Source of the DNA: Rhizaria sp. SCN 62-66
Lineage: Eukaryota
Length of the DNA stretch: 64,000 bases
NCBI GenBank assembly: GCA_001724265.1
Contig: MEDY01000056.1
Coordinates: 1 to 64,000 of the forward strand
Direction: 5' to 3'
Position 1 is the stretch's first letter, and every line of letters starts with the position of its first letter. Shown here one piece after another: positions 4,156-64,000 of this stretch. The notes beneath the pieces were generated by a model, which was not told the DNA's origin, did not search any database, and saw only the letters and a program-made list of their open reading frames with translations. A program made the translations under genes and the position numbers.

Positions 4156-6876
4156 ATGTTCCAGGTCGTCCACAGGAACGCTGCGCAAGGCCCAACTGGA
4201 AGAGACGTGCCATTCACGCACTAGGCGGCGCCGACGCGCGCTCTTGCGCCCGTGCACGGAACGTTCGACTTCGACCCAACTCCTCTCCGAGACGTGTCCT
4301 CGTCTGAGGTGGTCACAATCGCGTCGACTCTAGGCTCATGCTTGATTGCAGTCTCTGCAGGAATTCCAAATGCGCTTTTTGCCTTCACATCTGCGTTTTC
4401 GGCTGATCATAAACTCAGTCTCCCGAAGCACGCTTGGTTTCTTCCGCTCCTGGTTGCTGTCGCAACGGCTGGGCTGCAGTGCACTTTCATCACAACACCT
4501 CTGCACGCGCGTCACGGTCCCGCACGCACTGCGCTGCTGTGTGGACTTACTGCCGCATTAGGATGTCTGCTGTTTTCGTTTGCGACGCACCCAGCAACAC
4601 TTCTCCTATCACTCTTTGCTCTCTCTGTCGCCGCAGGCACTGCTTTCGTCGCTGCACTAGCACCCGCGCTCGCACTCGGCCATCCCGCGGCCGTCGCAGC
4701 AGTCTCTGTTTCGATGTCGCTCAGCATCACCTTTTCAGTTGCGGGCGCAAACGCAATTTCCTCGCTTTGTGGTGAAAACACAGGCGCATGCTGGCGTATT
4801 ACGTTCCGTGTCTTCTGCATTGCTGCGACGCTGCTCACAGTCGCAGGAGCTGCTCTCATGGCCGCATCACCGCTTGCGCGGAAACAGCCACCGCAAGCAG
4901 CTTTGCCATCGCCACAAGCGCACACTGTTGCACGAATATCTGAGTTGATGGAGTCACTGCACCTGCCAAGAGCTAGAGAGCAGGCGCCACAGAGCCAGAG
5001 AGACTCGCACGAAAGAGCATCAACGCTTGGTCACAATGATCACGTGGGACTAAGAAGCGCTGATTATTCGGGACTTACCATTGATAACAACGACAACAGG
5101 CTTGTGCGTGTGTCGTCCCACAACGAGATAAAACACGACCCAGTCTCTACGCACGGCCACTCTCACGCTCATGATTCCCCTAGTCACGCTCACCACTTGA
5201 CTGCACAGCCGCCGTCATTGTTGACACTGTATTCAGGACAAGATCGACGCGTTTTTGCAAGCGAGCGCCAAATCGTGCAGCGGCGTTCGAGTTCAAAGAT
5301 CGATACTAGTCTTCCGCAACATGTTGCTAACAACGGAACGAACATGCGCATCAGCCCACCAAGCAACGCAATATCACGTCGACGCACCCATGTCCCACCG
5401 CCCATTAGCACACAACCCGTCGACTCGCGCCCACGTGCGTTAATGGCAACACAAGCGCATCCCAGCCCTCTACTCCCGTCGTCACTGCAGCCGTTTGCTG
5501 GTGTGACGTCAAAGAGCGAGCCTGCAGCAGCAACATTGGCAACTTCGCCACTCTTACCACAGCGCGCTCAAGAAGAGGAGCAGCGCAGGCTGGATGCGAC
5601 TCGAGCAATGCGTCATATTCCCCTAGCAAATATAACAGTTCAAACTAATGCAACCGCTGGTAATCTAAGTGACCTGGATTGGGTGCGTGTCCACGCACGG
5701 CCGCTGTTGCTGCTTGGAATTGCAAACGCACTCTCGATTGGCGGGGCACTATTTTACACAACATCTTTGCCAGCACTCTGGGATGACATTACAGCAAGCA
5801 ACGCACCTGTTAGAAATGCTACAGTAACACCACATATTGCTGTGTTTCCAACAAGCAACCATACAGCACTGCTGCCTCCCACGCCACTTGATAGCGGTGG
5901 GTTGCCAGGAGCCAACCCAGCACTCATCCCGACATCACCAGTGACATCATTGCAGTACGTAAGGAACACCGTGCCACCACCTGCTTCATTAGCTGCACTG
6001 TCGGCAATTCTTTCTATTGCCATTGCCACTGGTAATGTTGTTGGGCCTGTGTTAGCATATGCACTGCGGCCAACACCTCGCGATATTAGTGAAGATGAGA
6101 ATCTGGCCGCAAATGATTCAAAGGTGCGCAGCTCGAGCCAAGATTACGATGATGACCGACATAGCCTTGGCGAGGCAAGACCTAGATTTCCAGCTAACGC
6201 GAGCGCCGTTTCAAGGGAGTTGCCTCAAGTGCGCTCACAGACGCAGCTTTTTTCCGAGCCACAAACTGGCGGTGGCAACAAGCGTCGGTGCACGTGTGCG
6301 TGTACTCTGCCAGCGTTGCTGTCAGTGATGCAGATTATATCTTCTTTCGCGTTTGCCACAGTCACAATTGCAGCGTTTACACTTCCCACAGCGTTATATC
6401 ATAGTCCTGCGAACAAAGCATTGCTTTCAGTCGCGTCAGTGTGGTTCATCGGCTCTCTTGTGATGATTGCCGCCTCTCTTGGATGTTTCTTCTCTCTACT
6501 TCCTACACTTGCTCTCCAGGCTTTTGGCGCACGCCGGTTTCCCACAGCAGTCGCCGCCGCACAGGCAGGCACCGCGGTTGTGCTTCTTGCCACACCGTTT
6601 ATCAAGGGCGCGTTGCTACGACCTCACGACGGCGGTATGCGCATCGGTGGCGCGGCGGCGGGGATTGCGGTCGCACATGCGGCGGCTGCGGCGGCAACGT
6701 GGGCGTTGGGCCGCACGCACTTCAGCCAGGCCGCAGTCGTTAAGGAGCAGAGAACGCTGTGGGAACGGGTTGAGACAGAGGCTGAGGAGGCCGAGGAGCG
6801 GGCGCAGCAGGGGGAGGCGGACGAAAAGATGAAGGAAGAGGGGCTGGCGCGGGGTGAGAGAATCACTGTCACATAA
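4156..6876 (+). CDS. MFS-like multi-pass membrane protein (906 aa if TAG 4222-4224 is read through)
   Basis: Two bundles of about six hydrophobic segments flank a long hydrophilic loop, an MFS-like 6+6 topology. The track ORF starts at GTG 4252. An in-frame ATG lies at 4156 (MFQVVHRNAAQGPTGRDVPFTH*AAPTRALAPVHGT), separated from it by a single TAG. Stop TAA. Confidence 0.6.
4222..4224 (+). other. In-frame TAG, putative sense codon (context PFTH*AAPTR)
   Basis: Only stop between ATG 4156 and the 874-codon open frame. Confidence 0.6.
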
Positions 6877-6988
6877 CGAGGACAAAGCAATTAGACAGTC
6901 GCGATATTGCATTAAGGAAAATAAAGAGTGTATTTATATGTATCAGTTGTCATCAATGTTGTTGAAACGCACAGTTTTGAGGATGCAC

Positions 6989-16207: not shown

Positions 16208-16767
16208 GTGCAGTTTGCTGTCGTCGATTTTTTGGGTTGTTCTGTGAGCTGGGCGGGCGATATCAAGAGAGAGAGGGGGACGAGTCAGCAGTGAAGAGCA
16301 AGATATTTGAGTTTGATATGAACATGTAGACAACACATATTAGAAATGCAAACAACTAGTCAATAGTGAATTTGCAATTAATTCTACCAAGTTCAGCCTG
16401 ATTCAAAATAACGGACGTTTTGCTTCCGTTCTAGGCCCTTGATTTGGTGATGACTTGTGAGGCTGATCTTTGTTGGTGCACTCGGCGATGACCGTTGAGT
16501 TAGGCAGCACGTTTCAAGTCACAAGTGCGCACGATACCAAACAATACCCATCAATAGTTTTACTAAGGTATTTTTGCAATACAAATAATGCATATGATAC
16601 GATCAAATCGAAGTCTATGTATCGGTATGCCTTGCAAAGGCATGGTTGTCAGCTGTAACAAAACAAAGCTCGTCGCACAGCTGATCACGTTAAGCTAATA
16701 TAACATCCTAAAAACAGATAATTGAAAGTACAAACATAACATAAATATACAGATTGCGCGTTATTAC

Positions 16768-19700
16768 TTATGTCCACGGCAGGAACATGACGAACAACGC
16801 CGTGCCGAGGAGCGTGTAGACCGCGACCCACAGTCCCACGGGGCCGGACTCGAACACAAGCCTACACAGCAGCCATCCCGCCTGCGCGCACGCAGCCGCA
16901 ACAAGGCTCAGCCCCGCAGCAGCACGCGTGGACAGAGCGCTCAAGTGGCCAGCACGGCCGCCGCCCCTGCCCCTGCCGCCCGAGCCCGCCGCCGCTGCTT
17001 GTTGGAGCTGCGTGGCCGTCGTGAGGACGTTGCAGCACTCTTGCCCGAACCCACTGTTGACGCCCACGCGCGCTGCGAGCGCGCCGGCGTCGGTCTGCCG
17101 CAGCGCCTCGGCGTGCCGCAGCCGCGCACTCGCCAGCCGCGCCCTCAGCCCGCCCTGCGAGCGGGTCTCTGGCTGAGAGCGCGAAAGCGGCTGCGCCTGC
17201 GAGCCGACAGCCTGTGCGCCCGTCTGCTGCTGAGCTTTCGCCCTCGGCCTGGCGTTGAGCGCAAAGCGCGCGAGCGCCCAGTACAGCGCGGGACACGCCG
17301 AGAGAAACCGTGTGGCGACTTGAACGTGCATGACCGTGAGCGCGGTGACCGTGAGCACCAGGATGTGGCCCCAGTAGGGCAACTCGGCGATCGAGGTCGC
17401 GATGTCGCTGTACAGCGCGGTCGTCACACCGGTCGGATTGCTTTCAGGGGCGCTATGACTGGACTGCAAATGCGAGTGACTGTGGGCAGCGCGGGTAGAG
17501 ACAGTAAACGCGGCAGTCGGTGCCGCCGCGGGGCGCGCGTGGCCACTGGCGTGGCCACTGTTGATGGCGTCAGAAAGAGCGACCGCGTTGCCAATGGCAG
17601 CTGCTCCCGCGATTGACTTGGAACTCGTCAATGCGTTCGCGACGACGCCATCGCCATCATCGTCGTCATCGTCATTGCCATCACCATCGCCGTCGTAGGT
17701 CGCGCTGTGGCGAGAGGAGAGCGTCAAGGGCAGTGACCTGTTGGCACCGAGGCTCGGCACGGGCGACAACATTTCCTTCAGGTTGCCGAACCTGTCCACA
17801 TACGTGCCCCTGCTCTTGCTCGTGTCAATCTGCAGATCTACCCGACTATTGCCCACCATGCACTTAGCGCAGCTACGCTTCCCCGTCATTGTCCGCGCCA
17901 AGCCCGCCGCCGCGGCCCCGGCCGCCGCCGCCGCGGCTACTGCGGCGGCCTCGTCCTCGGAGGCGACCCCGAGCCCCGCCGCCGCGGCCTGCGCGCGCGC
18001 ACCGGCGGCCGCGTCCCCGACCTCGGCCGCCGCGGCGAGCGCGCGCAGCCAGGCGAGCGCGCCCCAGAACACCGCCAGCAGCGCGGGCGCCGCGAGGAGG
18101 AAGTTGGGGAGCTGCGCGGGCGTGTAGTAGGCGAAGAGCCCAAGGCCCCAGAAGCGTGCCTGCAGGGAGGAGTAGACCGACAGAGGCGGGAACGGGGTCC
18201 AGGGCAGCGTGACGTAGACGTGCCGACGACGGCGGGGCCTGCTGCTGGTCATGACTCTGCCAGCGCCGGAGCCGGTGCCGGTGCTGGCGCTGGCGAGACC
18301 GCTGGCGTAGCTGTCGATGTCGCTGTCGGCGTACAAGGTCGCGGTGTTCGAGGTCAGCGTAAGCACTCCGTGCGCCTGCGCCTGCGAGTCTAGCTGAGCC
18401 TGTGACCGCGACTGTAAGCCAGTGACCGTGGGCAGTTCGACGGTGACTGCAGTGAGCGAGTACGGGTGCACGGTGCCCTCAGTAAGCAGCTCTTCGCCGG
18501 TGAACGCGAAGGCAAAGCGACGCTCGCTGGCCAGTGTCGCAATGACGGCGGCGCGACGAGCGAGCGCGGACGCACTTTCATCATCGGCAACAGAAGCTCT
18601 TCCACTCTCCCCAGCTGCAGAGTCATCACTCGCACCATTGCCGCTGCCGCCAGAGTCGCTGTGGCCGTCGCCGCGGTAGGTGCGTCCCTCGTACGTCACG
18701 CTGCCGTCGTCGTCGGTGACGGGGGAGGCGCCGTCGAACTGGGACAGGAACGGCCGGCCGATCCGAGCCAGCCACCCGCCATTGCTTGCCGCACTCGCAC
18801 TCAGTTGTCCGGAAGCAGCAGCGGAGGCAGCGGCAGCGGCGGCGGCTGCGACTTCGGCGGTGGCCTTGTCGGTCGCGGTCCTGGGTACAAACGCCGGGGC
18901 CAGTGCGTCCGCCGCCGCCGCGGCCTGCTCCACACGGGGCGCGACCGCGAGCTGCAGCGCCGCCCCCAGCAGCGCCTCGGCGGCGTCGCAGAGCGCCGAG
19001 GCCGGCAGCAGCGGCAGCAGCGAGGGCTCGCCGCGCGCGGGGCACGAGAGGCGGAAGGTCAGCGCGCCGGCGCCGCGGCAGTAGGGCGGGACCACGGGCG
19101 CGGGCGCGGCGGCGAACTGCGCCGCGGCGGGGGATGTTTCTGTCAGAGGGGCCAGGGGCAAAGGGGGCACGGTCAGAGAGGGCGACGGTGATGGCGCGGG
19201 CGCGGCGTAGGGCGCGGCGCGGAGGGGCGCGAACGCGTCGTGCGGGTGCGCCGGGTAGCAGTGGCGCGCGTAGGCAAACGATTGGACGAAGACCACGGGC
19301 GCTGCAATGAGGAGCACCGACGTGAAAGTCATCGAGATGAGTTTGCGCACAATCATGACGACCTTGAACCAGTTGAACGCCGTGTGCGCATACACTGTGC
19401 AGTTCGCAGATGACTACGAGGATGACGACGGTGGTGATAGAGATCCAGCCTCGTCAGAGCCGCTGTCGCGCGCGCTCCGGGACGAGCCCCGCTTCGACTT
19501 GCGCCCGCTGCGGCCGCTGCTGGAAGTTTGGCCGGCCCGGGCGGAGCGAGGGCGCTGCTGAGACGCTGTCGCCACAGCTACAGCCGCAAACGCCTCCGCG
19601 GGGGTGATGGAGAAGGACGACGAGTGCGAGTGCACATAGCCAGTGTACGCGCCGCCGCCAGCGCCTATGAGGAGGCCCGCAGACTCGATGTCGGTCGCGT

Positions 19701-22116
19701 TGCCCTCGGCCTCGGTCACTTCAGCCTCAGTGGCCTCGGCGACGTCGGCCTCGGCGGCGCCGGCGTCGGCGGCGTCGGCCTCGGCGCCCGCAAATATCTC
19801 TGCATCGGTGTCACCAGAGGAGTCGCCACGCCCAACACTGCCTGCGTTGTTGCTGTTGCTGTTGAAGTTGCGGCTATTGGGGAGAGCGCCATTGTAATAC
19901 GAGTCGGCGTTGGAGAGAGACTGCGCGTTGCCAACACTAGCCTTGTTGGGACTGTTGTCGCGGCGGTCAGACGTGGCAATGCGCGTGAAGCCTGCATGTT
20001 CAGCAGCAGTGTGGCCCGAGCCCCCACTCATGCAGGGACTCAGCGCGCTGAGACGGCGCCGCACCGCGGCCGGCAGCACCGCGACACACGCCCGGCGCGC
20101 GGCGCGACACGCGGCCACTCGCACGCGCAGCAGCACCGCACGCGCGCGCCGCACCGCGCTGATTGCCGCGGGGCGGGAAGTTAGGCCGCAGCAGAGGCGC
20201 GGCTTAGTCGCGGAAGGCTGGTCGCTGCTGGAGGCGCCGCTGTAAGAGCTGCCCCCGTGATCGTCGTCGGTCTGCCAGTCCCCTTCGCGGTGGCTGCCGA
20301 TATCGCTGTTGCCGCCGGGTGCCGGGGCGCCGCCGCGCTCACAGTCGCAGTGGCCGCAGCCGTCGGCGCAGCCGCCGCAGAGCGAGTCGCCGTCTGCGCC
20401 GCAGTCGGCGTCGCAGTCGATGTCGCAGTCGATGTCCACATCGGCGGCGGCGTCGGCGGTGGCGGCAACAACGGTCAGCGCCACAGCCTCTGGTCCAGTC
20501 GGTGAAACAAGAGTCTCTGTCTTGGCGCGAGCGCTGGCGCTGCCGGGGCGGCTGCTGCTTGCGCGAGCGCTTGCACTGCTAGGACGACTGCCCTTGCGCA
20601 GACTGATGCCAAGCGAGTTGTTGCTGGTGAGAGCCGCATTGTCCTTGTGTACGCTCACGTTACCACTGCTCGTACGTACGCCGGCGTGCGTGGTGTGTGT
20701 GACGGGATTGGCGCTGCAAGCAGCGACCGCGGGCCGGGTTTCCCTCTCCAGCCGGACGAGCATCCGCGCCGCATCCGCGGCCACCGGCGCCAGCGCGGTG
20801 GCGAGCATGGGCCAGACGACAAAGCCGGTGAGCGTAACGCCGTTGCTGCGCGCGGCCGTGGCAAGCACGCAGAGCGCGACGCCGGCGCTGGCCACGAGCA
20901 TCGACGCGGCGACGCGGGCCGCGAGCAGTAGAAGTGACGGCAGCCGCCGGCGCAGGGCGCGCAGCCACGCGCGCGCGCGGGGGAAGCGGGACCGCGCGCA
21001 CACAGACGTGGGACTGCGGGCCAAGTCAAGCGCAGAGCCGGAGCTGGAGCTCGAGCCGGAGTCATCTGCGTCGGCATCTGGGTCGGAGTCGGAGTTGGAG
21101 CCAGGGTCAGACCAGTCATCATCATCGTCGTCACCGCCGCCGCCACCAGCATTGCTGGTGGCGCCACCGTCCGCCGCGTTCGATGCTGCGATGCGGCGCT
21201 TTTCCTTCTCGTCGGCCTCGGCCGCGGCCGCAATGCGGGCCGACGCGACGTGCAGCAGCAGGCACGCGGTTAGCGACAGCAGCGCGTAGAGAGACTCCGT
21301 GTACGCGGCCGAGAAAAACACGCTGGCCGGGGTCGCGGCGAACAGCAGCGCCGCGGCCAGCGCCAGGGCCTCGCCGCGGGCGCGCACTGCAGCGGCAGTT
21401 GCACTCACAGTCGCAAATGATGCAGATGCTGCCGCCACAGAGGCTGGGGCAAGCGCTGCTGCTGTCACGCCGTCTTCAGACACTGGGGAAACGGGCAAGA
21501 AAGCGGGCGCAGGGACAAGGACGCGGCGCGAGAGAGCGTACATGACGAGCGCGGCCGCGACGGAGGCCGCATTGCTGACAACCAAAGCAGCGAGCACCAA
21601 CAACTCGCGCGCACACCAAACACTCAGGCCAAATGACTCACGCAGAGACGCAACCAACTTGGCCACGAGCAAGACAAGGGAAGGGTAGAGTGGAAAGAAT
21701 GCGTGCATTTTCTCAGCATGATAGCCGAACTGTGCGATTTCGAGGTATAGCAGTCCGTCCCAATGTGCGAACGCAGCGGCAGCACGGGATAACAGCCCGG
21801 GACTGAGAGGGAAGCCCTGCGCGGTGCAGTGTGGCGCCTGCGGGGCAGCATAGGGCAGCCACGGAGACGTCTCAGTAAGCGGTGGTGACGGGTAAGGCTA
21901 CGCTGGCGGGATAGGAGCAGGCGTTGTCTGGGAAAAAGAGCTGGAGGGGGTCGGGAGGTACGGAGGCTGTTCGGCGAGGTGTTTGAAGTCTGCATCATGC
22001 GATGGGAAGCTACCCACTGCACTGTAGATAGTAAAGCCCCACGTAAGGACTGTAGTGCGGAAAAATATGGCAAAGACCAGCACTACGAGCCATCCAGGCG
22101 GCTTGGCAGACAACAT
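16768..22116 (-). CDS. PIGV: GPI mannosyltransferase 2 (PIG-V/GPI18), 1782 aa, read through two in-frame TAGs
   Basis: Track ORFs 21898..22131, 19414..21708 and 16768..19395 share one frame and are separated only by TAG codons. Joined, they give PIG-V motifs in the right order: N-terminal TM, AHWDGLLYLEIAQFGYHAEKMHAFFPLYP, PASVFFSAAYTESLYA, ATAARSNG, YSSLQARFWGLGLFAYYTPAQLPNFLLAAP, MHVQVATRFLSACPALYW, terminal FLPWT. Stop TAA. Confidence 0.92.
19414..19416 (-). other. In-frame TAG in PIG-V (context PPSSSS*SSANCT)
   Basis: Separates the RSNG-containing half from the QLPNFLLA/FLPWT half. The frame is continuous on both sides. Confidence 0.9.
21898..21900 (-). other. In-frame TAG in PIG-V (context APIPPA*PYPSPP)
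   Basis: Lies between the start ATG/first TM helix and the conserved WD motif. There is no in-frame ATG between the TAG and the WD motif. Confidence 0.9.
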
Positions 22117-29590: not shown

Positions 29591-29622
<32 letters not shown>

Positions 29623-40000: not shown

Positions 40001-43000
40001 AATTATGGAGTGCGTACCTCTGTTTTGGCCCTCTCGAGCAAGGGATCTTTCTCTTCTTCCTTCTCAGGCGGAGAGAGCTCCCACGCGCGCCTCAACCCGC
40101 CACAAAACGCCACAACAAGATCATGTGGTAGCCAGTGCGCACCGCCGGCCGCGGTATATTGACACGCGCATGACGCGGCTTGATTTTGAATCGGGTTGAC
40201 TGGGATGTCGAGCGTCGCTGCGCAAAACAGTGCAAACGTGCGCGACGAATTGGTATCAGGGATAAGGCGGCGGTGGCAGTGCGCGCAAGTAGGGGAGCTG
40301 TAAACAGCAACGCTAGCCGTACTGGGGTTATAAGACTGATACACCGCACCATCGTCGTTGTTGAACATGCTCTCGATTGCGAGCGTCGGGTTGCTGTTGC
40401 TGTTGTTGCTGATGTAAGTGTTCGTTGCAGAGTAAAAGCCGTCGGCTGCAAGTGCACGCAACGCTGCAGCACGACGACGACACACAGTCTCGTTCCAATG
40501 TGCCGATCCCAACAGAAGTCTGTACAGAGGATACAGCACCGCAAACTCGCTGTGGTCGCGCGCCCTCACCATGCTTACACTCGAGCTCGTACTCGCAGTT
40601 GCAAGAACACCGCTATCGCTGTCTGTGCTTGGGGATGTCTGGCGATGAGCCGAGATGACTGCCCGCACTTCAGCGCGTTTGAACAGCTCGAGGGCGCGCT
40701 GCGCGGTGGCGCTGTGGTCGCTCGACAGCGCGGGCAGCAGCACGGCCCACAGCGCGCGGCGCGAGTGCGTGTACGCGCGGGCGAGAGAACACGGCAGAGG
40801 CAATGATTGGGCCATGCTTGCGGTACTCTTAGTCGTGCTTGTCAATTGATGTTTTGGTACTGCCGCAAGGAAAATCGCCTCCACGTGATGCAGAATGATG
40901 AGCGCCTTTGCACTGTTGGCTGCCCGCGGCGGTGGGAAGCATGACAGCACATGTAGCAAAAATGGCACCAGGAGATCCTAAACAAAATACAGCATCAAGC
41001 AAGCAAACGGAACAAAACATTCGGACAAACGATGTGAGCCGTATTGCAGTCAATAACACAAATGTTCGGTCCACCAGTATCTTAAAAGCACGCACCTTGT
41101 CAGCTTTGATTGCAGTGAGGGCAAGTCGGAGCAGCGGCTCATGGAAGGCGCCGAGCACAGCTTCAGTACCAACACCGCCGCCACTGTTTGCAGTGAAAGC
41201 ACCTCCACTCACAGCACCAGCAGACTGGAATAAGGAAGCTAGCGAGCCAGTGGCACTCGGTCCTGCTGCTGCTGCTGATACCAGTGAACCTGACGCTAAA
41301 TTCGCGCTGCTCGCAGACGCGTCGGAGGAGCGCGCAAGCGGCGGCCCATCCAAGGGGCCGGCGCGGGGACCACTGCGCGCGCCTGCAAGCCGGACGGCCA
41401 AGCCACCTTGTTGATGGTGCAGGCCGGCTAGCTGCACAGGCAACCCACCGGGCATCACAGGGCCGGCAAGAGGGCCTGCCCGGGGGATGTGGTGAGCGGA
41501 CATCGGCGTAGACACGTGCTGCGGAGTAATTGCAGCGCCGGCGCTGCCCCGCGGCGCAAGAGAAAAGAGCAATCCGCCGGGAGCCGTGCCCGCAACTGGC
41601 CCCGCAACGGGCCCCGCTATCGGGCCTGCGATCGGAACATGTCCCGACGCGTGAGTTTGCCCGTGCACCGCGTGGTGATGATGCGGGGCCACCGGAATGC
41701 CCGAGGACGCAGCGAGCGCGCGCCTGCGCAACGAGTCGCCGCTGCCGGCGCCGGGAAGAACGCCCAGTGCGACGCCGCTGTGCACAGGAGCTCCACCAGC
41801 ACTACCGCTGCCAGGACGCGAGAGTGCACTAGCGGGGTGGGTGCCAGCCGTGGCGGCCTGCTGCGCAAAGCGAGACGGGACGCGCACTGAGCTCGCTGCA
41901 ACGGTCGCAGGCGTTGCATTTTGCGATGAAGATGGCGCCAGATGCTGTGAGTTTGACTTGGTTATCAATGTTGCAACAGCCAGGTTCGAATGTGGCGTTG
42001 CTGCCGCTGCTGCCTCAGCTTCATCATCTTCTGCAAAGTCACTTGAGCCACGGCCTCCCATTGAATTATCCCCACGAGTCTGCATCTCTGTTGCGACAAG
42101 CCGTGCGACCTCAAAAGCAACTGCTCGACGTTCAGTAAGTTCAGAGTCACCATCGCTAGACGCCGCAGCGTCAGTGCCCAGACCTAGTACGTCGGTGTTG
42201 TAAAGGTCAAGAGCAGAGGAACTGTTCGCGACTGGATTCACCTTCATGCCACTGCTTCCCGCAAGTGAGTGGCCGTTTGCAGACGCGTCGCCAACCATGC
42301 CCTCGGTGCACCAGAGCTCGGCAACGACTGTCAACAGCAGGCGGAAGTTCAGCCTCTTCTTGGCGAGAGAAGCACTTACGTGTTCATTACCATTGTTGCT
42401 GTAAGCAGCACATACGCACTCATTGGCTTCAGGAAATTTAGCGCAGATCTTGGAATGTTCCTGCTTGCATGCACCTGGCGCTGACGTGGTCGTGGTTTCG
42501 CAGTTATCTGGCTGCAGAAGAGCGTCGTTCAATGGTGCCATCACCGCATGAATCAGCTGCAGCGCTTCCGCAACGCCCCCGGCCTCGCCATACAGCGGCC
42601 CCGCAGAGAGCAACGCCGCGGCCGCACTGCCGCCCTCGACGCGCGCCGTCACGCCGCTCTCGGGAGCCACGGCACCGGCACCGCAAGGGGGCAACTGCGG
42701 CGCGGGAATGCGTGGCGGCGCTCCAGTGGATGAGCGATAGCTTTGCGCAGAGTTGCCGTGCAAAGATGAAGCAAGATTCAAATTGATGCCGGCCGCGCCC
42801 TCAAGACCCCGACTCAAAAGCGTGTTCAGCAAAGCGACACCTGGCCCACATGCAGAAGCGTCACTTGATTGGTCCGGTGTCTGCGGTTGTGACGCCGTCT
42901 GCATCTTCGTTGCACTGCTGGTGAGTGACCACAGCAGCGGCGCTTCAAGATCAGCCTCGCTCACATTCACATGGCTTGGAGTACTGGAGTTGGATGCCTT

Positions 43001-44995
43001 CGAATGTACGGTGATAGCCGGAAGCGCTGCAGAGCCCAGCGCGACTGACGCCCCACTGCGCATGACAAACACTGCCAGCGCGTCGCCCAGCGCCTTGCGG
43101 ACCACGCGTCGCGCGCGCGCGCACGACTTGTACAGCGCCTGCAGCAGCGCGCGCGCGGACGCGGCCTCGCGGGGGTCGGGCGCGTGTGCGATCGTGAGCA
43201 GCCGCGGACCGACTGCAAGCGGGGTAATCACACCGGCAGCGCCTGCGGCTGTGGACGGGGCTGTGCGGCTGCGGTCCACTGGAGTCGTGACCGCAGGCAG
43301 CGGCAGCGTGACCGTGAGCGGAGTGAACAGACCGGCGCCGAGGCGCGCGGTGAGCAGCTGCAGGAACGGGAGGCTGGCGAGCACTGGCGGGGCGGAGACG
43401 CGACTGTGCGCCGTGACAATCGAGCCCTGCTGACTGGGGGCACGGCTGTGCGAAGTGTAACTATAAGAGCGGCTATGATTGTGGTGTGATGTTTCCGGCG
43501 CATACGTGAACGATGTCGAGGAGAGACCGATGCCGGCGACTGCGCGGGGGTCGATGTAGCCCTCTAACTGCGAGCTGTATGTCTCATCCAAAGTCGCAAT
43601 TGTAGTGCGACGCCTTGCACCGCAATCAAGAGCACTCTCGTTATTGCCACATGATACCAGCTCGCATGCAAGGGACTCGGCAGCCTTTGACGCGACTCCG
43701 GCACGAGCCGCAGAGCTAAGAAATAACCTCTTCTTCAAGCGATCGCTGCAAGCTGCAGCATTCGCATTTGCTTCATTCGCGTCATCATCCGAATCACGCA
43801 CTTCATCTTCGCTATCTTCGTCTTCGTCTCCGTCGCCGGGACTCACCGGCGGTGCAGCAGTGCACACCTGCGTCAGCACGGAGTAACACTGCAACAGCTG
43901 GGCGACAGCAACCTCAGACACCGCCTCCGCGGCCTACGCAGCGGCTGCGGCAGCGGCAGCGGCTTCCACTGCGGAAAGGGCCGCAATAGTCGCAGCGGCC
44001 ACAGCAGGGTCCGCGATCGCGACTGAGCTGCCTGACAGCGGCGGCTGCGAAACGCTACTGGCATCGTTAGCGGCCAAAGCACTTGATGTAGTGGCACAGC
44101 GAGGGGGTTGCGTCAGGCCAGGTGTTGCCGGCACAAACGAGGGGGTAAAGCCCGCCGCAAACGACCGTGATAACACGTCCTCGTAGCCGGTCCCGGTGTC
44201 GTTACCAGTCGACGGGCCGAAGCTGCCTTGCGCTTGCGCGAGCTGCGCATGCGACTGCGCCTGTTCGCGCAGCCTCTTGATCTCGCCCAGCGACCCTTGC
44301 TTCGCCGTGCTGCCTGCAACAGCCCCGCCGAGGCCCGCACTCGAGCTCGAGCTTACACTGTGGCTGTTGCTGTTGCTGTTGCTGTTGTTATGGCTACTCA
44401 TACTGTGGCTCGAGGGCGCCGCAGCCCTTGAGGGCGCGTCCGTCACAGTCACCACGGTCACCCCGGGTGGCACCCACCGTGGTACGCGCAGTTTGTCCTC
44501 CCGCGTCGCGCTAACGGCGCCCGCATGGGTCAACTGTGAATGTGGCCCTGCAGCAGCCGATGTTGCCGTCACTGCAGTGGCCGCCGTGGAGACAGCGCGC
44601 TCGCGATCCCGCTCGCGCGCGCGCGCCACGAGCTCTGTCTGCCGCGCGGCCGCGTGCGCGGCGTGCTTATTGGCCGCTGCGGCGTCGGCGCGCGCCCAGG
44701 CGGCGGTGAGCGCGGCGGCGGCGAGCGCGTACAGCCGCGGGTCGTGCCACAGCGGCTCCAGGTCGCGCGCAGCGCCGGCGCGGAAGCTGCGGGACAGCGC
44801 GCGGTACGCAGAGGAAACCTCAGTCAGCGCGGCGGTAAGCGCGGCGGTCGAGGGCGCGGGGCAGGTGACGGGCGCTGAGAGGGCGGATAGTTGGGAGAGG
44901 AGGGACTGGCAGCCAGCCTGCTGCTCGGCCTCGAAGGCCGCATCGGCCTCTGCGTCAGACGAGTCTTCGCCGGGTGACGGCTCACGTCGAGACAT
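37080..44995 (-). CDS. Fusion of a PP2A B56 (B') regulatory-subunit-like domain and a PDK1-like Ser/Thr kinase, about 2559 aa; exons 44995-41096, 40977-40018, 39899-37080; one in-frame TAG
   Basis: Four track ORFs are joined by TAG 43934-43936 and two 118-nt phase-0 introns (40978-41095 GTGCGT..TAG; 39900-40017 GTACGC..CAG). B56-like motifs in order: DPRE...LLQALY...R..VRKAL, GVAEALQLI, FHEPL, NSAKALIILHHVEAI, SSDHSATAQRAL, HWNETV. Kinase motifs: LGAGSF, VAVK, YFVLEL, GDLKLENVLL, KLADFG, GTAEYLAPE, SDLWGLGCVLY. Stop TGA. Confidence 0.8.
43934..43936 (-). other. In-frame TAG in the B56-kinase gene (context AAAAAAAA*AAEAVSEV)
   Basis: Sits inside a GC-rich poly-Ala run, with no intergenic-like or intron-like sequence on either side. 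Confidence 0.88.
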
Positions 44996-45323
44996 TGGCT
45001 GTCGCGTGTTGTACCTTGATATTGTGCTTGGATTTGAATCAGCGCTGTCTGCGGTCCGGTATGCGTGTTTGAGTCAAAAGCTGCAAATTGTAGGTCCACA
45101 TGGGTGCAATGTGACATGAGTTTAGTGAGCGATTGATCTCAGCACATTGTCCGTCAGGGAAGATATCAAATAGTAAATGAAATTTAAATAAATACATATT
45201 TGACGCTCCTTTAATTAAACCCTCTATTCGTTTTTTTATAACTCACATTCGATCCTTTTCACTTGACTCTCGTCCAGCCTTTTCTTCTGCCCGCCAGCCG
45301 TTGGCACTGCGCCTCGTCTCGGC

Positions 45324-48300
45324 ATGGCGGATCATTCAACTTCATGGGGAGAGGATGAGCCTAATCACACTGACGTTGATGTTAACGACCCGTACTACGC
45401 GACATTTGCCACCGCAGACGGGTTCGGGGGCGTGCAACTCTCCCTCGACATTCCCCACCACAATCACTCTTCAGGCCACCGCAGGCGCACTGCCGCGTCT
45501 GGGGCGCCAGGGTCGGCGCTGGCGCACGGCGACGATGACGCCGATGTGCTGTCTGGCGACGAAGCGACTGCCAGCGGCAACGTTTTTGCGACTGTGGCGC
45601 ATGAGATCATCGACTCTGACATCGACTCGGATTGCGAGCAAGCGCTCGCGGCAAGCGCTGCCACGAATGCAAGCTCTCCGGCGCAGACAGGAGGTCATAT
45701 TGAAACTGCAACCGCGCCACCGGGAAGTATCTACACTCGCCATAAAAGGTTAGCGGCCGCTGTGACGGATAGCGCTCAAAATGCTCGTGAACAGCCTGTG
45801 ACAACGACCGCCGCTCAAAGCTTCCAATCACTGCAGTCACAATCAAACGCACATTTGTCTCAGAGGCATTTGCGCACACACTCACCTCATACTGGGAACC
45901 AATTGTTGGCGGCGGCGACAGCGCAGTCTCGAGCGGCGCAACCGTTGCATTCTGCGCCGCAGCAGCGAGGCCAAACACTGCAGTTGTCATGGGAAGTCAG
46001 CGGCAACGCAGCGGAATCTCTCAGTTCACTCTTGGGACCATGGGCGCGCTCTCTTCAACATCAACTTATTACGCAGTCAGCGCGACAGCAGCGATCACCG
46101 CAACGAGTGCCACACACCGGCAGCAACGCTGCGGCAACCTTAGCGGCCGTGACGCCAGCTCCAGTGTCGCAGGCTCAGTTCCTCTCGCAGCACTCGCGCG
46201 CAGCCCCGCAACTACACATGCATACGTCGCCGCGGCTGCCAGACTTTTTCGGGACCACGCCGCGCGTGTACTGTCCTGTGCTTCCGCCACTGCCCACGCA
46301 CGAGCTTGGCGGCGGCCTAACTTCAGCAGCGAGTGCTACATGTTTCCGTGACCATTCGAAAGCGCGGCGCATTGACGCCCGCACAGCTGACCGACCTGCA
46401 ACTGCGGCGGCATTATTGGCGCCTGCTGGTCCGAGTGATCATGAACAGTTTTCTTTGCCCCCCGCTGACTGGCTGCCGCTGGTCACTCCCAACAAGAATG
46501 TTACCGCAAGTGGCACTTTCCATCTCAAGCCCCCGCACCCGCTTCAGTGGCCGTTCCCTCCCGCGGTGCCGCGCACCTCGTCCTCATCTTCACACCAACC
46601 TGCTCCTTCCGCTGTTGATACCCACCGCCAGCGCATGCTTCGCGCACCAAGCCCGCTGCTGCAGCTGCCGCCGCCCCCGTGGCAGCGGCCGCGGTGGCGC
46701 CAGTCAGCCGCCGCCCCCGCCTCCGTCTGGGGCCTGCTGCTGGCGGCCGACCCTGCGACAGTGGCCGCGCTCTCGGGTTTTCTTGCCGCAGCAGCAGCAA
46801 CGGCTGCACATTCCAACAGCTAGGGGGGACTGACTGCTGTCGACATTGCGATGGCGGCCGCTGCGGCTCCCGTCGCGGGGATCGACGGCGTCGCGACGTT
46901 TGCAAACGCTGCCGCGACATCAGGGAACACTGTTGCTGCCAATGCGACACACGCGTTTGCTTCTGTGATAAGAAAGCGCACAGAGGCTAGTGCAGATGCG
47001 CTGAATGCGATCGCGACAGCGTTTCCGGCGCAGCTTGCCGCATTGGCGCAATCTGCTATGGCCGCAGCAAAGCTCGCCGATAAAAGCACACACACGAGTA
47101 ATGTGTCAGTGAAGCGTTCTTTCACTGAACATGAAAGTGATCTAACTCAAGTTCTTTCGCTGAGTTTATCGACTTTGCCTTTGTTTCCGTTTCCTCTATC
47201 CCCTATCGTCACCGCAGCTTCTGTCGCCGCGTCAGTTGTTTCTAACAGTAGCAACAACACAAATGGCGACAATGCTATACCATTGACTGTTGCTGCGCCC
47301 GTGGAAGCCGCTCGCCTATTGCGCCTCTCACAGGCACTGCCGACGCTGGCGCTGCTTTGCCGCTTGCGGGCCGCCGTGCCCCGCTCCGTGGTGCGGCCCG
47401 CGTCGCTCGAGCCGCCCCCGCTCGTGGCGTTGCCTTTCGTCACCAGTGCGTGGCACCCAGTCGTGCGCACAGTGGCGTCTGCACACGGTCACTCGGCGGC
47501 GACCGCTTTAGGCCAAGGCCAGACTAATTCACACGGTCGCTCTGGCGACGTCTCCGCGTCATCTCTGATGAGTCATTACAACCAGCCCGGCTCCACCGCT
47601 GGCGCTGCCGAGGCCTCCGCAGCCACGGCCGCTGCCATCGGAGCCCTCGCTGGCGTCACAGGCGCGACCGCCGCGGAATCGCTGGCCCGCGTGGCCGCCG
47701 CGGCGACTGCCGCTGCAAACGCGCTCGCGACGGCTGGGGACGCCGTTGCGGACGCCTTTAGCGACAGCGTAAGCCACTCTGACGCTCGCAGAGGCGATCG
47801 TGGCATAACCGTTACTATCGATGCAAATGCAGGTGCTGTGGCCGCGGGCGCTGTGGCTGCAGCTGGGGTCATGTCACTACGTTTGTTTCATATGATGAAC
47901 GGTGAAAACATTGGTCTTCCCTCTTTGCCCCCGAGCATCACTGTTGCAACGCCGGTTCACCCTCTGTCACCGCTTGCAAACTCTGTGTTGCCGATCTCAA
48001 CTCGTGATGACAGTGTGAACGCGTTGATTGCGCAAACACAGACAGCCGTAATCACTCAAAGTCAAGCCGCTTCCCCAGCCCACGACAAGGGCAGCGTCTC
48101 CCGCGGCGCCGTTGACTCAGCCCTCGCGTGGCTCGGCTCCGGGCCTGGCCCCGCGGCGGGCGCTGCTGCGGCGGCGGGGCCGGGGCGCGGGCTGCAGCTG
48201 TGGAGCGACAGCGAGCTCAGCACCGCTGCTGCTGCCGCCAGGTCTGCTCGGACTGTGGACAACACTGGTGGGAGGGCAACGGTGAGCACCTCACAGCACA

Positions 48301-53275: not shown

Positions 53276-55261
53276 TCAGCTGGGCTGCGCCGAGCGCAGC
53301 GCCGCCAAGACCACCGCCGCCGAGAGCGCTGCTGCCGCCGCCGGTGCGGGTGCTGAGAGAGGCGAGGGGTCCGTGTCGTGCATCGCCGCAGTGGCGGCCA
53401 CGGCGGCGGCGGTGAGGGCCTGGGTCGACAGCGGCTGCGCCGGCTTCACCGGCAGCAGCAGCATGCGCCCGCCGCTCGGCGGCGCCGGGGCGGCGACTGC
53501 TGGGGCGGCGACTGCTGGGGCGGCCGCGGGCGACTGCGACTGCACGCGTGAGGAGTTTGGCGCGGGAGCGACTGGTGAGCCCGTTGCTGCTGCATTCGAT
53601 ACAGCAGCAACAGCAGCAGCCGCCGCGGCGGCCGCAGCGGCTGCGACGGCAGCAGTTTCTACAGACGCAACAGCGCCAGCCGCCTTTGTATCGACTTGGC
53701 TGCCGACGGCGTCCTTGCCAGCAGGGACGGTAGCACTCACGAGACGGTTCGGGCTTTCATCAGTGTCCACGTCATTACTCTTGTTGGCCCTCCGTGTCCG
53801 TTTGACAGCTGGCGCAGCTGAGCGACTACCCCGAAGTACATCACCCTGACCAGACCTCGCACCCATCCTCGCACCCTTCTTGACCGCCACCAGCTCGTCG
53901 TCGCAGCTCTTGGCCAGCGCCGCGTACGTCATGCCCCGCGCGTCGGCCACCGCCACCAGAGCGGCGAGCTCCGGCGTCGCACTGTCACTGTAGCGGTTGG
54001 CCCACGCCCGCGCCGCCTCGAGCGCCGCCGCGTCCAGCTTCGTCTGCCGCACCAGCTGCGCCACAGACCGCTGCAGGCGCACTGCGCGCGCGCTCGAGGC
54101 CTCGGCGGCGCGCTCGCTCTGTGAAACCGCAGCGGCGCACTCGTTCTCGAGGCGCAGGCGCGCACGGCGCTCGCGCATCGCCAGCGACCGCTTGAGGCGC
54201 TGGGTAGCAGCTGCGTTGGACGCGTCTGCGCCTATGGCGGTGGTCGTGGCGGCGCGAGTGCGAGTTCGCGCGCGGACTCGTTCCGCAGAGGGAGTGGAGG
54301 GAGCTTCGAGGTCATCGGCACGATCATCGCTGTCGTTAGCGTACTCAACGTCATCAACCTCGTCCTCATCGTCATCATCCTCACTCTCATCATCGTCATC
54401 GTCATCGTCAGTGCCGGAAGCGTCAGAGGTATCGTCAGCGTCGGCGTTCCTGCGCTTGCGAGTTGTGCCAGGAGACCCCGGCCGTGGAGCGCTCCGCTGC
54501 GGCGTCTCCCCGCGCGCACCCATCTGTCCCCCCTGGTCTCGCGCGGCGCGTCGCACAGTGCGCGCGTGCAAACGCTGGACACAGGCCTCCTCGTCAGCGT
54601 GTGCCTAGTCGGCGGCGGCTTGGGCCTCTGCGGCCGCCCGCGCCGCCTCTGAGCGCTACGGCTGATCCCGCCTCGCCTTGCGGGAGTTCGGGTCCCGCTC
54701 CGAGAGAAAACCCAGCTCGCGGTCCTTGCGCGCCTGTACCGAGAGGCCCGACGAGGCGCGCCGGGAGCGGGGCAGCGTGGCCGTGGCGAGCGGTCTGCGG
54801 GCGCTAGCGCTTGTTCTCGCGGCTGCGCTGGTGCTGCGGGATCGGGCTGTGCGAGAATTGTTGTGTTTAGATGTGTTGTGGGCACGGGACGCCTTCCCAG
54901 AGCCAGTCATGTCGTCGTCGTCATCATCATCATCTCCATCTTGGTCCTCATCTTCGTCCTCGTCCGCGTCTTCGTCGCTGTTGCAATGATCCTCAGCTCC
55001 ATCTTCGTCCTCAGTTTCATCTTCGCCTGCGTCATCGTCTGCAGCCTTAACATCTGGATCAACATCAGAGCTAGCAGCGGTATCTCCGTCGCCGGTGTCG
55101 TTTCTGTCGACGTCAGTCCCACGATCACCTGCACTGTCGTTGTCATCGTTGTTGTCGATACCGTTGTCGCCGCAGGGCTGGCTCGGAGTCAGAACGGATG
55201 AGAGAGTTGCCTGATAATAGCCCTGAAGTTTAGCAGGACCAACAAACAAACCGCACGTCAT
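53276..55261 (-). CDS. Hypothetical acidic/Ala-rich coiled-coil protein, read through two in-frame TAGs; 5' end uncertain
   Basis: ORFs 54656..55318 and 53276..54571 are in one frame, linked by *RSEAARAAAEAQAAAD*AHADEEACVQRL. Coding-like composition throughout. ATG 55261 is provisional because a possible splice acceptor lies at 55223. No family recognised. Stop TGA. Confidence 0.6.
54605..54607 (-). other. In-frame TAG (context AQAAAD*AHADEE)
   Basis: 17 codons after the previous TAG. The frame then stays open for more than 440 codons. Confidence 0.8.
54656..54658 (-). other. In-frame TAG (context RRDQP*RSEAA)
   Basis: Frame continues through coding-like sequence. Confidence 0.8.
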
Positions 55262-60700: not shown

Positions 60701-63700
60701 CACGCACTCCGACTCTGACTCCGAGTCCGCGGACTCAGAGTCGGACTCGGCAGAGTCAGACTCGGACCGCGGCCGCAGTCGTCGCCGTAGCTCGCGCCAC
60801 AAGCGCTCTAGCTCCCGCCGTGACCGCAAAAGTCGCCGCCGCAGCGAGCGTTCCCGCCGCCGCCGTCACGACTCTGACTTGGGCTCTGAATCAGACAGCG
60901 ACAGCGCTCGCCGCAGTCGCGGCAGCGATGGCAGTGGCCGTGAGCGTCGCCGCAGCCGCCGCGACCGCCGTCACGCCTCCAAGTCCGCCGTCCCTGCACT
61001 CGCGGCCCCCAAGTCCGACAGCAAGCGCGTCGCCCCGCCGCCGCCGCCGCCGCGCGGCCCGCGCGATGTGGGCGTGCTGAAGCTGTGCGTGTACGACCTG
61101 GCGGACCCACGCGCGGTGACCGACGGCGACTTCGCGTGCTGGGCCAAGCTCACGCTGCCGCAGCTGCTCGCCTGCCCGGCCGGGACGCCCGTCGCCGTGC
61201 CGATGCACCCCGCGGCTGGCGCGATCAAGGCGCACGCCAAGCGCCGCGCCGCCTGGGACAAGCGGCAGCAGCGCCTCGCCGCCGCAGCAGCCGCGTCACA
61301 GAATGGTGAGAATGCCGACGGTGACTATGGCGCGGATGCATTCGAATAGGACGAGGATGAGAGAGACATGCTGCTGCTGCCGGTGCCGGAGACGCTGCCG
61401 ACGCCCGTGATTGTGCTCACGTGGGAGGACGCCACGCCTCCGGTCACGCGCACGCACGACGGGCGCCTGCTGCTAGCCGCGGGCACTGGCGCTGGGGCCA
61501 GCGGCAACGCGAGTCTCAACAACTCGGCAGCGAACGCGCTCAACGCGTCTGCCAGCGACTCCAAAGCACTTGTGCCTGCTGCGGGGGCGGGCGCCGCAGA
61601 GGACGACGACGAGGATGATGACGACGACGTGCTCGCGGGCTTCTCCGGCTCTGGTGTCGGCGCGTGTCTGCGTCGCCTTCGTGGTGCCTACGCCGCTGAC
61701 CGCGCCGTGTACGCCCGCTGGGAAGCTATAAATGGTGCTGATGCCGCTGCGGAAGCGAAGGCCAAGGCGGCGAAGGCCAAAGCTAAAGCTAAGGCCGCCG
61801 AGCGCAAGCGCAAGTTGGCTGAAACAACTGCGGCGACCAATGCCACTGCTGATGTCGCAGGCGCTGACCCAGGCTCGCTGCACGCAATGCTGCTCCGCAA
61901 CGCCGCTGCCGGGGCCGGCCACAACGCAGCCGGTGGTGGCGCGGGCGCGATTGCCGCCGCTGCCGCCGCGATGGCTGCTGCTGCTGTTGCATCGTCACTG
62001 TCGCGCCCGCAACTGCCTCCGCTGAAGCGCACCCCGTCTGGTGGCCGCAGTCACCGCAGCAACAGTAACCGCGTCGCCGGCGCTGACGCAGGCGCTGCGA
62101 CTGCAACAGCGCTTGCTGCAATGGCCGCTGCTGTCGCCGCGACCGCCGCTGCCTCCGCGGGCGGGGCTCCCGCTCCCGTGCGCGCTTCGGCCGACATTGC
62201 AGCGTACGACCCCGCCGCGCCGCCGCTGCTGCTGCCGCCGCTCTGCGCACCCGCGCCCGGCGCGGCGCACGCGCCGTCGCTGACCGTGCTGTTGCACGCG
62301 TCGCTGCGGCTGCGCGTGCCCGCCGCCGCGCCTGTGCCCGCGCGCGCGCTCGCCGTCGCCGCACGCCGCCGCGACCTTGTCACCAGGTCCATCACGGCCG
62401 CGGCTGACTGGCTGAGCCGCACCGCGCTGCTCGCGCAGGCGGTTCCTCCCACTGGCCACGGTCAGCAGCCGCCGCCGCAGTGGGAGTGGCAGTCGCGCGC
62501 CGCCCCGTCCGCCTCCCGCGCGCAGGCCCGCCGCGAGGCGCGGCTGCGCGCGGTGCAGCGGTGCCGCGCGCTGTGGGCGCGCGCGGTGCAGGCCGCCCCC
62601 GCGGCGGCCGCGGCGGCGCGGGCGCTGCTGCTCACGGTCACGGGCGATGGGCAGAGTCGCACGTTGCCGCTGCTCACGGTCTCTCTGCCCCCCGTTGAGG
62701 CTGTGCCCGAAGCTGCTTTCGAGTCGAACGCAGATGACTCTGCTAATGCAGCAACCCCGAACGAGGCGAACGTGGTTGGTGTTCCTGCTCCTGAGAAGGT
62801 TGCAGAAAACAATGACTTTGAGTCCAGCATCCCTCCTGTTCCTGCTGATGCACCCAAGAGCACCGGTTTCTCCGTTGCGGCCGGTTACGACGAGGACGAG
62901 GGCTACGGCTTCGATGCATTCGATGCGGCCCCCACTCCAAGTGCAACAGTCAATGCCGACTCCGCTGCTTTGGCAGCCGGGCACGACACTATTGCGCCCC
63001 TTGCGAGCAACACAGGCGACAACGGCACCGATGCGTCGCTCTTTGCTGCGCCCGTGTCGCCGATCGCGAGCGCTCGCGGCGACGGCCGCGGTGAGGCTGT
63101 CAACATGAGTGTCAGCGGCAAAACCGTCGCTCAGCCGCCGAGTGTGCTGCTTGCGGACCTTGCCCCGCTGCTTTCTTGCATGCAGGTCTGTCTCAGGGTC
63201 ACGTTCGGCACCGCCAACGCTGACACTGCGATGACCAACGGCAACGACTCACAGTTTCCGATCACTGCACCGACGAGTTCGAGTACTGCGCTTGTCGCTG
63301 TCGACAGCATTAACTCCGCGCTCGTTCCTTTCAACCACAGCACGACTGCGAATACTGCCAACGGGGTTCATGCCGACGCTGGCGAGGGCCCTGCCACAGT
63401 CGTGTCAACGTCGTGGATGCCCCTCTTCCCTGCAGTCGCGATCGCTTCCGTCGTCACTAACCACGTGACAGCTGAGACCGCGAGGGGTTCTTCGGCTGCC
63501 ACTGCGGAGTCGTCGCTGTCGTGGCCTGACCCCGTGGCTGCCCCGTACCGCCCCCGTGCGCCTGCTCCCGTCACGCTCACTGCGCGCGCGCGCGTGCCGC
63601 GGCCGACAGGTTACCTCACAGCCGGCGAGACCACTGCGGCTGCGGCGTGGGCAGCCGCTGTCGGCCGCTGGCGCTCTGTCGTCGAAGCCGCTGCGGCTGC

Positions 63701-64000
63701 CGCGGAGGCCGAGATCCTCGCGTTTCGCGTCAACCTCGACGACGAGGACGAGGACGAGGATCAAGACAGTGAGCACGAGTCCGACGCCGCAAGCGGCAGT
63801 GACAGCGAGGACGAGCGCGACAAGGCTGCTCGCGCCGCCCGCGCGCAGAACGACCTTCGCGCCGCGCTGCCCGCCCTCCCCGTGGCACCGCAGCCGCAGC
63901 CGTGGTTCGAGTGGGTCCTCGGCGCGCACACGGGCTCGCTGCGGTCCATCATCGCCGCCGCGACCACCCACGCCGAGGAGAGCGCTGCGGTCAGCACCGT
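57729..64000 (+). CDS. Very large low-complexity protein with a fragmented C2-like domain and an RS/SD-rich tract; one in-frame TAG; runs off the window
   Basis: Track ORF ends at TAG 61347-61349, but the same frame continues (DEDERDMLLLPVPETLPTPVIVLTWEDA...) with no stop apparent to base 64000. Copine-C2-like pieces: VRVRVACASLP, VAQTE, NPAFEQCIEI, LKLCVYD...DF...A.LTL.QLL. Start is ATG 57729 or 57780. Confidence 0.7.
60420..60980 (+). repeat. Arg/Ser- and Ser/Asp-rich low-complexity coding tract
   Basis: Alternating RRRR/SRSR and SDSDSES blocks in the translation. Confidence 0.75.
61347..61349 (+). other. In-frame TAG (context GADAFE*DEDERD)
   Basis: Embedded in a continuous acidic stretch. 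The nearby upstream GT sites (61306, 61321) would shift the frame into a TGA if TAG were a splice acceptor. Confidence 0.88.

Follow-up and report, generated by a model that had tools for sequence, protein, structure and literature searches.

A probable variant nuclear genetic code with UAG as a sense codon in 64 kb of DNA from an uncultured eukaryote

Introduction

Changes of the nuclear genetic code are rare, and codes in which the meaning of UAG has changed while UAA is still a stop were first reported in 2017, a handful of them having been named (PMC5304391, PMC11687900). In this study we analyze such a candidate code in positions 1 to 64,000 of contig MEDY01000056.1 (GenBank assembly GCA_001724265.1), further referred to as the window, where eight in-frame TAG codons interrupt six otherwise continuous genes. 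A close comparison is the rhizarian exLh (Sainouroidea), which reads UAG as leucine: 384 in-frame UAGs were found in 71 genes, many of them at conserved leucine positions, the terminators were UAA or UGA only (56 and 15, respectively), and a tRNA whose anticodon is CUA was predicted and not found (PMC5304391).

UAG encodes glutamine, with UAA retained as a stop, in Iotanema spirale from Fornicata (PMC5304391) and in Protocruzia tuzeti and some phyllopharyngean ciliates (PMC11687900). In the green alga Scotinosphaera UAG encodes serine, and UAA is a stop (cited in PMC11687900). Both UAA and UAG encode glutamine in Amoeboaphelidium protococcarum (PMC5304391), and Amoeboaphelidium genomes have a G+C content (GC) of about 40% (PMC10608142). 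Condylostoma, karyorelicts and Blastocrithidia use ambiguous codes, where the same triplet also ends genes. The release factor eRF1 reads the third base of the stop codon by the motifs GTS, NIKS and YxCxxxF and by position 69 (PMC5304391). An earlier note on this DNA, made from the sequence alone, named as precedents the rhizarian (Leu) and Iotanema (Gln); these stand, while Scotinosphaera, Protocruzia and the phyllopharyngean ciliates (PMC11687900) were missing from its list.

Our conclusion is that UAG most probably encodes an amino acid in this nuclear code and that UAA and UGA are its two stops. The genes continue across the TAGs, no TAG terminates a gene in the window, and the TAG bases are real. 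That this genome decodes UAG as sense had been proposed in the earlier note, and all tests that the window allows agree with the proposal.

Results

Reading frames joined by TAG

All eight in-frame TAGs are present at the coordinates and on the strands given in that note (Table 1). When TAG is read as sense, their flanks merge into six open reading frames (ORFs) of 913, 1878, 1415, 2019, 691 and at least 2126 codons, whereas no large ORFs of the window are joined when TAA is treated as a sense codon. The six frames contain 3,009 stop triplets (1,691 TGA, 659 TAG and 659 TAA). Only in four cases do 300 or more open codons flank the triplet on each side, and each of these triplets is a TAG (61347, 19414, 46821 and 43934). 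The fifth-best join is TGA 36109, which lies inside an intron of the meckelin gene.

Downstream of the TAGs the frame stays open for 443–1499 codons where its end is visible, and past the window end for TAG 61347. The exception is TAG 54656, which meets TAG 54605 after 17 codons; upstream of it the frame is open for 230 codons, with an ATG 201 codons away. No frameshift and no TAA or TGA was found in the coding sequence of any of the six TAG-bearing genes. A codon-usage model trained on 7,916 codons from TAG-free, mostly Pfam-supported ORFs gave the frame of the TAG the best score on either side of 19414, 43934, 46821 and 61347. A ninth in-frame TAG at 22153 was rejected as non-coding, being located in the AT-rich 5' leader of the PIG-V gene.

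Homology and start codons

The most direct evidence for continuity comes from PIG-V (GPI mannosyltransferase 2). Profile positions 52–138 of PF04188 are matched before TAG 19414 (E-value 3e-12), and positions 270–323 and beyond are matched after it in the same frame (E-value 8e-21), both above the Pfam cut-off; homology thus carries this gene across an in-frame UAG. Very long inserts rich in Ala, Ser and Asp divide the Pfam domain (443 profile positions) into four parts, and the same inflation by inserts is seen in INTS11 (1039 codons) and in the VPS9-domain protein.

Start codons bear on three other sites. The only plausible start of the N-terminal part of PIG-V is the ATG at 22116, 72 codons upstream of TAG 21898; the first in-frame ATG past this TAG comes 64 codons later, and the Pfam match begins at residue 37 after the TAG. 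Similarly, the sole in-frame ATG upstream of TAG 4222 is that at 4156, the MFS_1 match begins 50 residues after the TAG, and an in-frame ATG is met again only 164 codons further on. Since in both cases the next ATG lies beyond the domain start, a restart after the TAG would remove the first part of the domain. For TAG 43934, in the kinase gene, an in-frame ATG is reached only after a further 291 codons. A match of the N-terminal part of the same kinase gene to B56 had an E-value of 0.06, below the Pfam cut-off, and was not used.

In-frame ATGs follow TAGs 61347, 46821 and 19414 at distances of 7, 10 and 20 codons, which would allow each TAG to end one gene and another gene to begin shortly behind it without a change of frame. 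Two public bacterial-style gene calls, P0122 and P0121, which share 99% identity with the window, were made in this way, stopping and restarting exactly at TAG 61347. However, the PIG-V domain extends over both sides of TAG 19414, the TAGs are not followed by the AT-rich spacers that are usual after gene ends (see below), and all pairs would need to share the frame by chance. We therefore regard separate genes as extremely unlikely. The two calls also bear out the statement of the earlier note that standard-code annotation fragments genes of this organism.

Gene ends

The earlier note had counted 16 gene ends, eight TAA and eight TGA, and our count is the same, with no TAG. The C-termini by which it had fixed some of them (FLPWT in PIG-V, DERFMV in meckelin and CCSK in Rab5) are as written. 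TAA 40003 resembles a terminator but falls within a predicted 118-nucleotide (nt) intron of the kinase gene; if this intron is wrong, the count becomes nine TAA, eight TGA and no TAG. Taking the TAG share as 27% (4 of the 15 next in-frame stops in 3' flanks), the probability of no TAG among 16 ends is 0.007. The count covers the gene ends within the window.

Flank composition was analyzed for 15 stops taken as gene ends, including TAA 40003, later judged intronic. The GC of the next 150 nt is 0.30–0.45 after 13 of them and 0.53 and 0.64 after the other two, and in all 15 cases a further in-frame stop follows within 3–32 codons. In contrast, GC downstream of all eight TAGs is 0.55–0.75.

Introns

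In this genome an ORF joined through a stop is in itself no proof of a sense codon, as real in-frame introns carry in-frame stops. Five introns are supported, 118–192 nt long and starting with GTACG or GTGCG; in the four that were measured GC is 0.39–0.54 and the T fraction is 0.32–0.42. The T-rich GTRCG introns described in the earlier note were thus recovered. The exon following the meckelin intron matches positions 696–825, the last 130, of the meckelin profile. In three supported introns the length is a multiple of three (132, 174 and 192 nt), and these introns are in frame with their exons, so naive ORF finding reads through them to an internal stop. The kinase ORF lacks its own start codon, and the predicted 118-nt intron with TAA 40003 would join it in frame to the upstream ORF. 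Splice motifs and frame suggest that it is the last exon of a single gene of about 2,560 codons with two 118-nt introns.

The TAGs might accordingly never reach the ribosome, being removed with unusual GC-rich in-frame introns or changed by RNA editing. The in-frame stops of the meckelin intron (TGA) and of the 192-nt prefoldin intron (two TAGs, the second being the splice acceptor itself) provide a model for this, and TAG 4222 could in principle be an acceptor (CACTAG followed by G). However, six of the eight TAGs have no enclosing donor–acceptor pair with the composition of the supported introns, and no donor-like motif occurs within 600 nt upstream of 19414, 46821 and 54605. Three intron candidates were found at 4222 and 21898; all of them begin in the intergenic or leader DNA further upstream, and the ones at 21898 do not keep the frame. 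The flanks of the TAGs retain the codon usage of the coding frame. In-frame TGA and TAA are found only inside T-rich introns (TGA 36109 in meckelin and TAA 40003).

Real transcripts are present in the RNA runs, since the Rab5 intron is spliced out in a contig from the cDNA run X8 and a contig from the poly(A) run X5 starts at the same exon boundary. Among the RNA contigs listed from these two runs none bridges a TAG, which has no bearing on whether those parts are expressed. Contigs of run X5 cover position 54604, adjoining TAG 54605, and the TAG itself is not listed as altered; as DNA may occur in an RNA library, this counts only weakly against editing. Taken together, removal of the TAGs by splicing or editing appears highly improbable.

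Independent assemblies and strain differences

Five of the TAGs (43934, 46821, 54605, 54656 and 61347) recur without any difference in contigs of runs X3 and X4, which come from two other studies; the comparison covered a 20-kb stretch that holds these five sites. Two scans of metagenome contigs gave none in the first case and, in the second, one 3,192-bp contig (L001), identical to the window and containing no TAG site.

Presence of the same TAGs in other assemblies bears on the possibility that they are errors of assembly, alleles in a heterozygous state, or true nonsense mutations in genes that are decaying or truncated. A run of TAGs would not be very surprising in this case, as 60% of the single-base routes to a stop give TAG with the codon usage of these genes, and the strains differ at only nine positions in 20 kb, so that the samples may be near-clonal. 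Nevertheless, the frames stay open for 443–1499 codons after the TAGs (883 to the window end for 61347) with positive coding scores, against an off-frame stop density of about 2% per codon, and no other disruption is present in the six genes. Moreover, a housekeeping enzyme, PIG-V, carries two TAGs, and the absence of TAG from all 16 terminators would be left unexplained. These structural points, the frames open for hundreds of codons and the lack of other disruptions, are more telling than the TAG counts, and we consider mutations or errors very unlikely.

Six of the nine strain differences fall in coding spans, two being synonymous and four not, and a selection test is not feasible because the single-nucleotide polymorphisms (SNPs) are too few. 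The differences at 54583, 54604 and 54814, all within the 661-codon gene, affect the first codon position and change the amino acid, and 54604 directly follows TAG 54605. A rival plus-strand frame at 54125–55201 was rejected: it has a lower codon score, and one strain SNP would make a stop in it.

Codon rarity and readthrough

Several observations weigh against reading UAG as a regular sense codon. TAG is the rarest codon, with 8 occurrences among 17,221 (0.46 per 1000), about three times rarer than the next one, AGA (26); a stop that is read through inefficiently could be equally rare. The segments that hold the eight TAGs are disordered, of low complexity or lineage-specific, and no TAG coincides with a conserved residue, so that homology points to no particular amino acid. 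The earlier description of the flanks as GC-rich and coding-like holds for GC downstream of all eight TAGs and for codon usage at four, but the codon-usage signal is weak in about 50 codons around 54605 and 54656, and the 22 codons upstream of TAG 4222 are not coding-like. The probability of (1/3)^8, about 1.5e-4, given there for eight TAGs out of eight was overstated: with the TAG share of 60% the random-nonsense model yields 0.6^8 (p = 0.017), and for the four strongest sites p = 0.13. Neither ARAGORN nor Rfam detected a tRNA gene within the 64-kb window, and eRF1 is not encoded in it. As noted above, the listed RNA contigs bridge none of the TAGs. Finally, the evidence base is one 64-kb window.

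Rarity, confinement to disordered segments where any residue is tolerated, and the lack of a tRNA whose anticodon is CUA in the scanned window would be expected if UAG were still a weak stop, subject to leaky or context-dependent readthrough by near-cognate tRNAs with no dedicated tRNA, and thus had two meanings, as is the case in ambiguous codes. There, one triplet serves both as a terminator and as an internal sense codon, whereas in the window TAG ends no gene, which is unexpected if UAG still stops translation. Two TAGs precede most of the PIG-V domain, and inefficient readthrough would lose most of the enzyme. The six bases following the TAGs (GCGGCG, TCATCT, CCTTAC, GCCGCG, GGGGGA, GCACAC, CGCTCA and GACGAG) contain no common motif, which counts against signal-driven readthrough. 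Six of about 17 genes are affected, and programmed readthrough usually touches far fewer. We consider a leaky stop unlikely, and UAG as a sense codon remains the preferred reading.

The contexts of the TAGs are rich in Ala, Ser, Pro or acidic residues, and one TAG is situated within a serine run (SSSS-TAG-SS). The neighbor-context score is flat at the top (0.6, −0.5 and −0.7 bits for Ser, Ala and Asn, respectively) and does not discriminate between amino acids. Paralogous repeats were also considered, and none of them covers a TAG.

Relatives of the organism

The best BLASTP matches of INTS11 have 49–53% identity and are opisthokont and amoebozoan sequences. In a quick single-gene tree of the window sequence and 34 of the 120 listed matches (86 redundant ones were dropped) it lies outside the opisthokont clade on a very long branch, and its placement is not reliable. 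The catalytic region of INTS11 (659–2128, plus strand) has an atypical amino-acid make-up, and its branch is about ten times the median length in the tree with 34 homologues. No close relative of the organism was observed among the proteins searched.

Searches with the TAG-bearing ORFs, restricted to length bands and swamped by low-complexity words, gave no homologues at an E-value of 0.001 or lower. An exhaustive search of 1.84 billion representatives with the residues around TAG 61347 yielded two matches, both 99%-identical fragments from the same organism cut at the TAG, and no relatives. No usable match was obtained with meckelin in the ESM Atlas, and the PDB sequence search with two TAG-bearing proteins gave no matches. 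A literature search found no paper on a UAG-reading eukaryote from sludge or wastewater.

Gene content and occurrence

The window has a GC of 63% and contains eukaryotic nuclear genes on both strands, mostly very long, intron-poor ORFs with Ala-, Ser- and Asn-rich low-complexity inserts (Table 1). The largest is a 3,072-codon ORF (6989–16339, minus strand) that has neither a TAG nor a Pfam match and is mostly alanine-rich low complexity. Two PLAC8-family exons are paralogous, about 1.7 kb apart, and located in the only low-GC part of the window (0.48); both end with TAA. Rfam gave no matches to RNA families within the window.

Runs from eight studies of bioreactors, wastewater and activated sludge also contain DNA of this organism, and therefore we treat the contig as metagenomic, from an uncultured eukaryote. 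Region 40001–50000 or parts of it were found in 14 of the 15 runs listed, from eight studies (2015–2025), the sample types being bioreactor, wastewater, activated sludge and microbial fuel cell. At least half of the sampled words of this region were present in four runs; small shares are no evidence of habitat.

Table 1. Coordinates of the in-frame TAGs, genes, introns, gene ends and spanning contigs
Feature	Position	Strand	Details
In-frame TAG	4222..4224	+	Codon 23 of the MFS-type transporter gene; support moderate
In-frame TAG	19414..19416	−	Inside the PIG-V gene; 827 open codons before, 881 after; support strong
In-frame TAG	21898..21900	−	PIG-V codon 73, after the N-terminal hydrophobic segment and before the first stretch matched by Pfam; support from homology and start codons
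In-frame TAG	43934..43936	−	Long N-terminal part of the protein-kinase gene; 379 open codons before, 1034 after; support strong
In-frame TAG	46821..46823	+	2000-codon gene; 518 open codons before, 1499 after; support strong
In-frame TAG	54605..54607	−	661-codon low-complexity gene; support probable
In-frame TAG	54656..54658	−	Same 661-codon gene, 17 codons upstream of TAG 54605; support probable
In-frame TAG	61347..61349	+	Gene from 57729 to beyond 64000; 1242 open codons before, 883 after (to window end), the largest join in the window; support strong
INTS11-type beta-CASP nuclease	659-3778	+	Pfam; 1039 codons
MFS-type transporter	4156-6876	+	Pfam MFS_1; one in-frame TAG
PIG-V / GPI mannosyltransferase 2	16768..22116	−	Pfam PF04188; 1782 codons, two TAGs, ends with TAA
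PLAC8-family exons (two)	24667-25074 and 26333-26647	+	Pfam
Protein-kinase gene	37080..45073	−	Long N-terminal extension, two predicted introns, one TAG, ends with TGA
2000-codon gene	45321-51323	+	No family match above threshold; one TAG
661-codon gene	55261 to 53276	−	Acidic and basic low complexity; two TAGs
Gene longer than 2090 codons	57729 to beyond 64000	+	No family match; one TAG
Rab5			Matched as Pfam Ras family
Prefoldin, NSRP1, VPS9-domain protein, meckelin, MAT1			Other Pfam-named genes
Meckelin intron	36100-36231	+	132 nt, in frame; GTACGG...CTAAC...TTCAG; GC 0.39, T 0.42; holds in-frame TGA 36109
Prefoldin intron	22604-22777	+	174 nt, in frame
Prefoldin intron	22915-23106	+	192 nt, in frame; holds two in-frame TAGs
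Rab5 intron	52132-52294	+	GT..AG; spliced out in RNA-run contig (run X8 record 28, joint 52131 to 52295)
Kinase introns, predicted	41095-40978 and 40017-39900	−	118 nt each; predicted from splice motifs and frame, not RNA
Gene ends, TAA	197, 6874, 6989, 16768, 23269, 25072, 26645, 52694		
Gene ends, TGA	3776, 27197, 29105, 36808, 37080, 51321, 53276, 55907		
Run X3, contig 2	spans 46821		
Run X3, contig 5	spans 54605 and 54656		
Run X3, contig 8	spans 61347		
Run X4, contig 10	spans 43934		

Discussion

Decoding of UAG would be by a dedicated tRNA with the anticodon CUA, which would pair with UAG and not with UAA, and termination would involve an eRF1 with weakened recognition of UAG, as argued in PMC5304391. 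The reassignment may be young, or the codon may be poorly decoded; either would fit the status of UAG as the rarest codon, found only in disordered, lineage-specific segments. In such segments new TAGs could arise by single mutations without harm.

A further-reaching interpretation is that of an independent, evolutionarily young capture of UAG in a lineage without sequenced relatives, observed at the earliest stage, when the codon has gone from terminators and is returning as the rarest sense codon in unconstrained segments; it may encode an amino acid new to UAG in nuclear codes. The 49–53% identity of INTS11 to its best matches, its very long unplaced branch, and the lack of a homologue of one TAG-bearing protein among 1.84 billion representatives point in this direction, and we consider such a capture a tentative possibility that falls short of being probable. 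If true, it would provide a natural snapshot of codon capture in a GC-rich genome.

A further case of UAG reassignment would give independent information on the way reassignment begins, in this instance from a GC-rich, intron-bearing and apparently unplaced eukaryote that barely uses the codon. For practical purposes, annotation and binning of this genome need a variant code, because standard-code or bacterial-style gene callers cut proteins at each TAG.

Comparison with known codes

We rate the window as a further case of a known rare kind, the UAG-only nuclear reassignment. All three features testable in a window are present: internal UAGs in continuous genes, no genes ending with UAG, and no in-frame UAA or UGA in coding sequence. 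There is a close likeness to exLh, where UAG is likewise the sole reassigned codon and genes end only with UAA or UGA (56 and 15 in exLh, eight and eight in the window; PMC5304391). The differences are that the window has 8 TAGs in about 17,200 codons, none of them conserved, in contexts that show no sign of leucine, and that the INTS11 tree did not place the organism.

Iotanema, Protocruzia and the phyllopharyngean ciliates share with the window a sense UAG whose meaning is uncoupled from that of UAA. The window differs from them in its 63% GC, spliceosomal introns and very long low-complexity inserts; such introns and inserts are unlike ciliate macronuclear DNA. Scotinosphaera also has UAG alone reassigned, and one TAG of the window lies in a serine run, Ser ranking first by a trivial, non-discriminating margin; however, nothing marks the organism as a green alga. 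Amoeboaphelidium is another non-ciliate microbial eukaryote with a stop-to-sense reassignment. Identification of the window organism as Amoeboaphelidium was rejected, since UAA is reassigned there whereas 8 of the 16 genes here end with TAA, and the GC is about 40% there against 63% here. As in the ambiguous codes, a stop triplet occurs inside coding sequence and its low usage leaves room for a dual meaning, but in the window this triplet ends none of the 16 genes. Compared with the known UAG-only codes, the case described here stands apart by the extreme rarity of UAG, a GC-rich, intron-bearing genome and an unplaced lineage.

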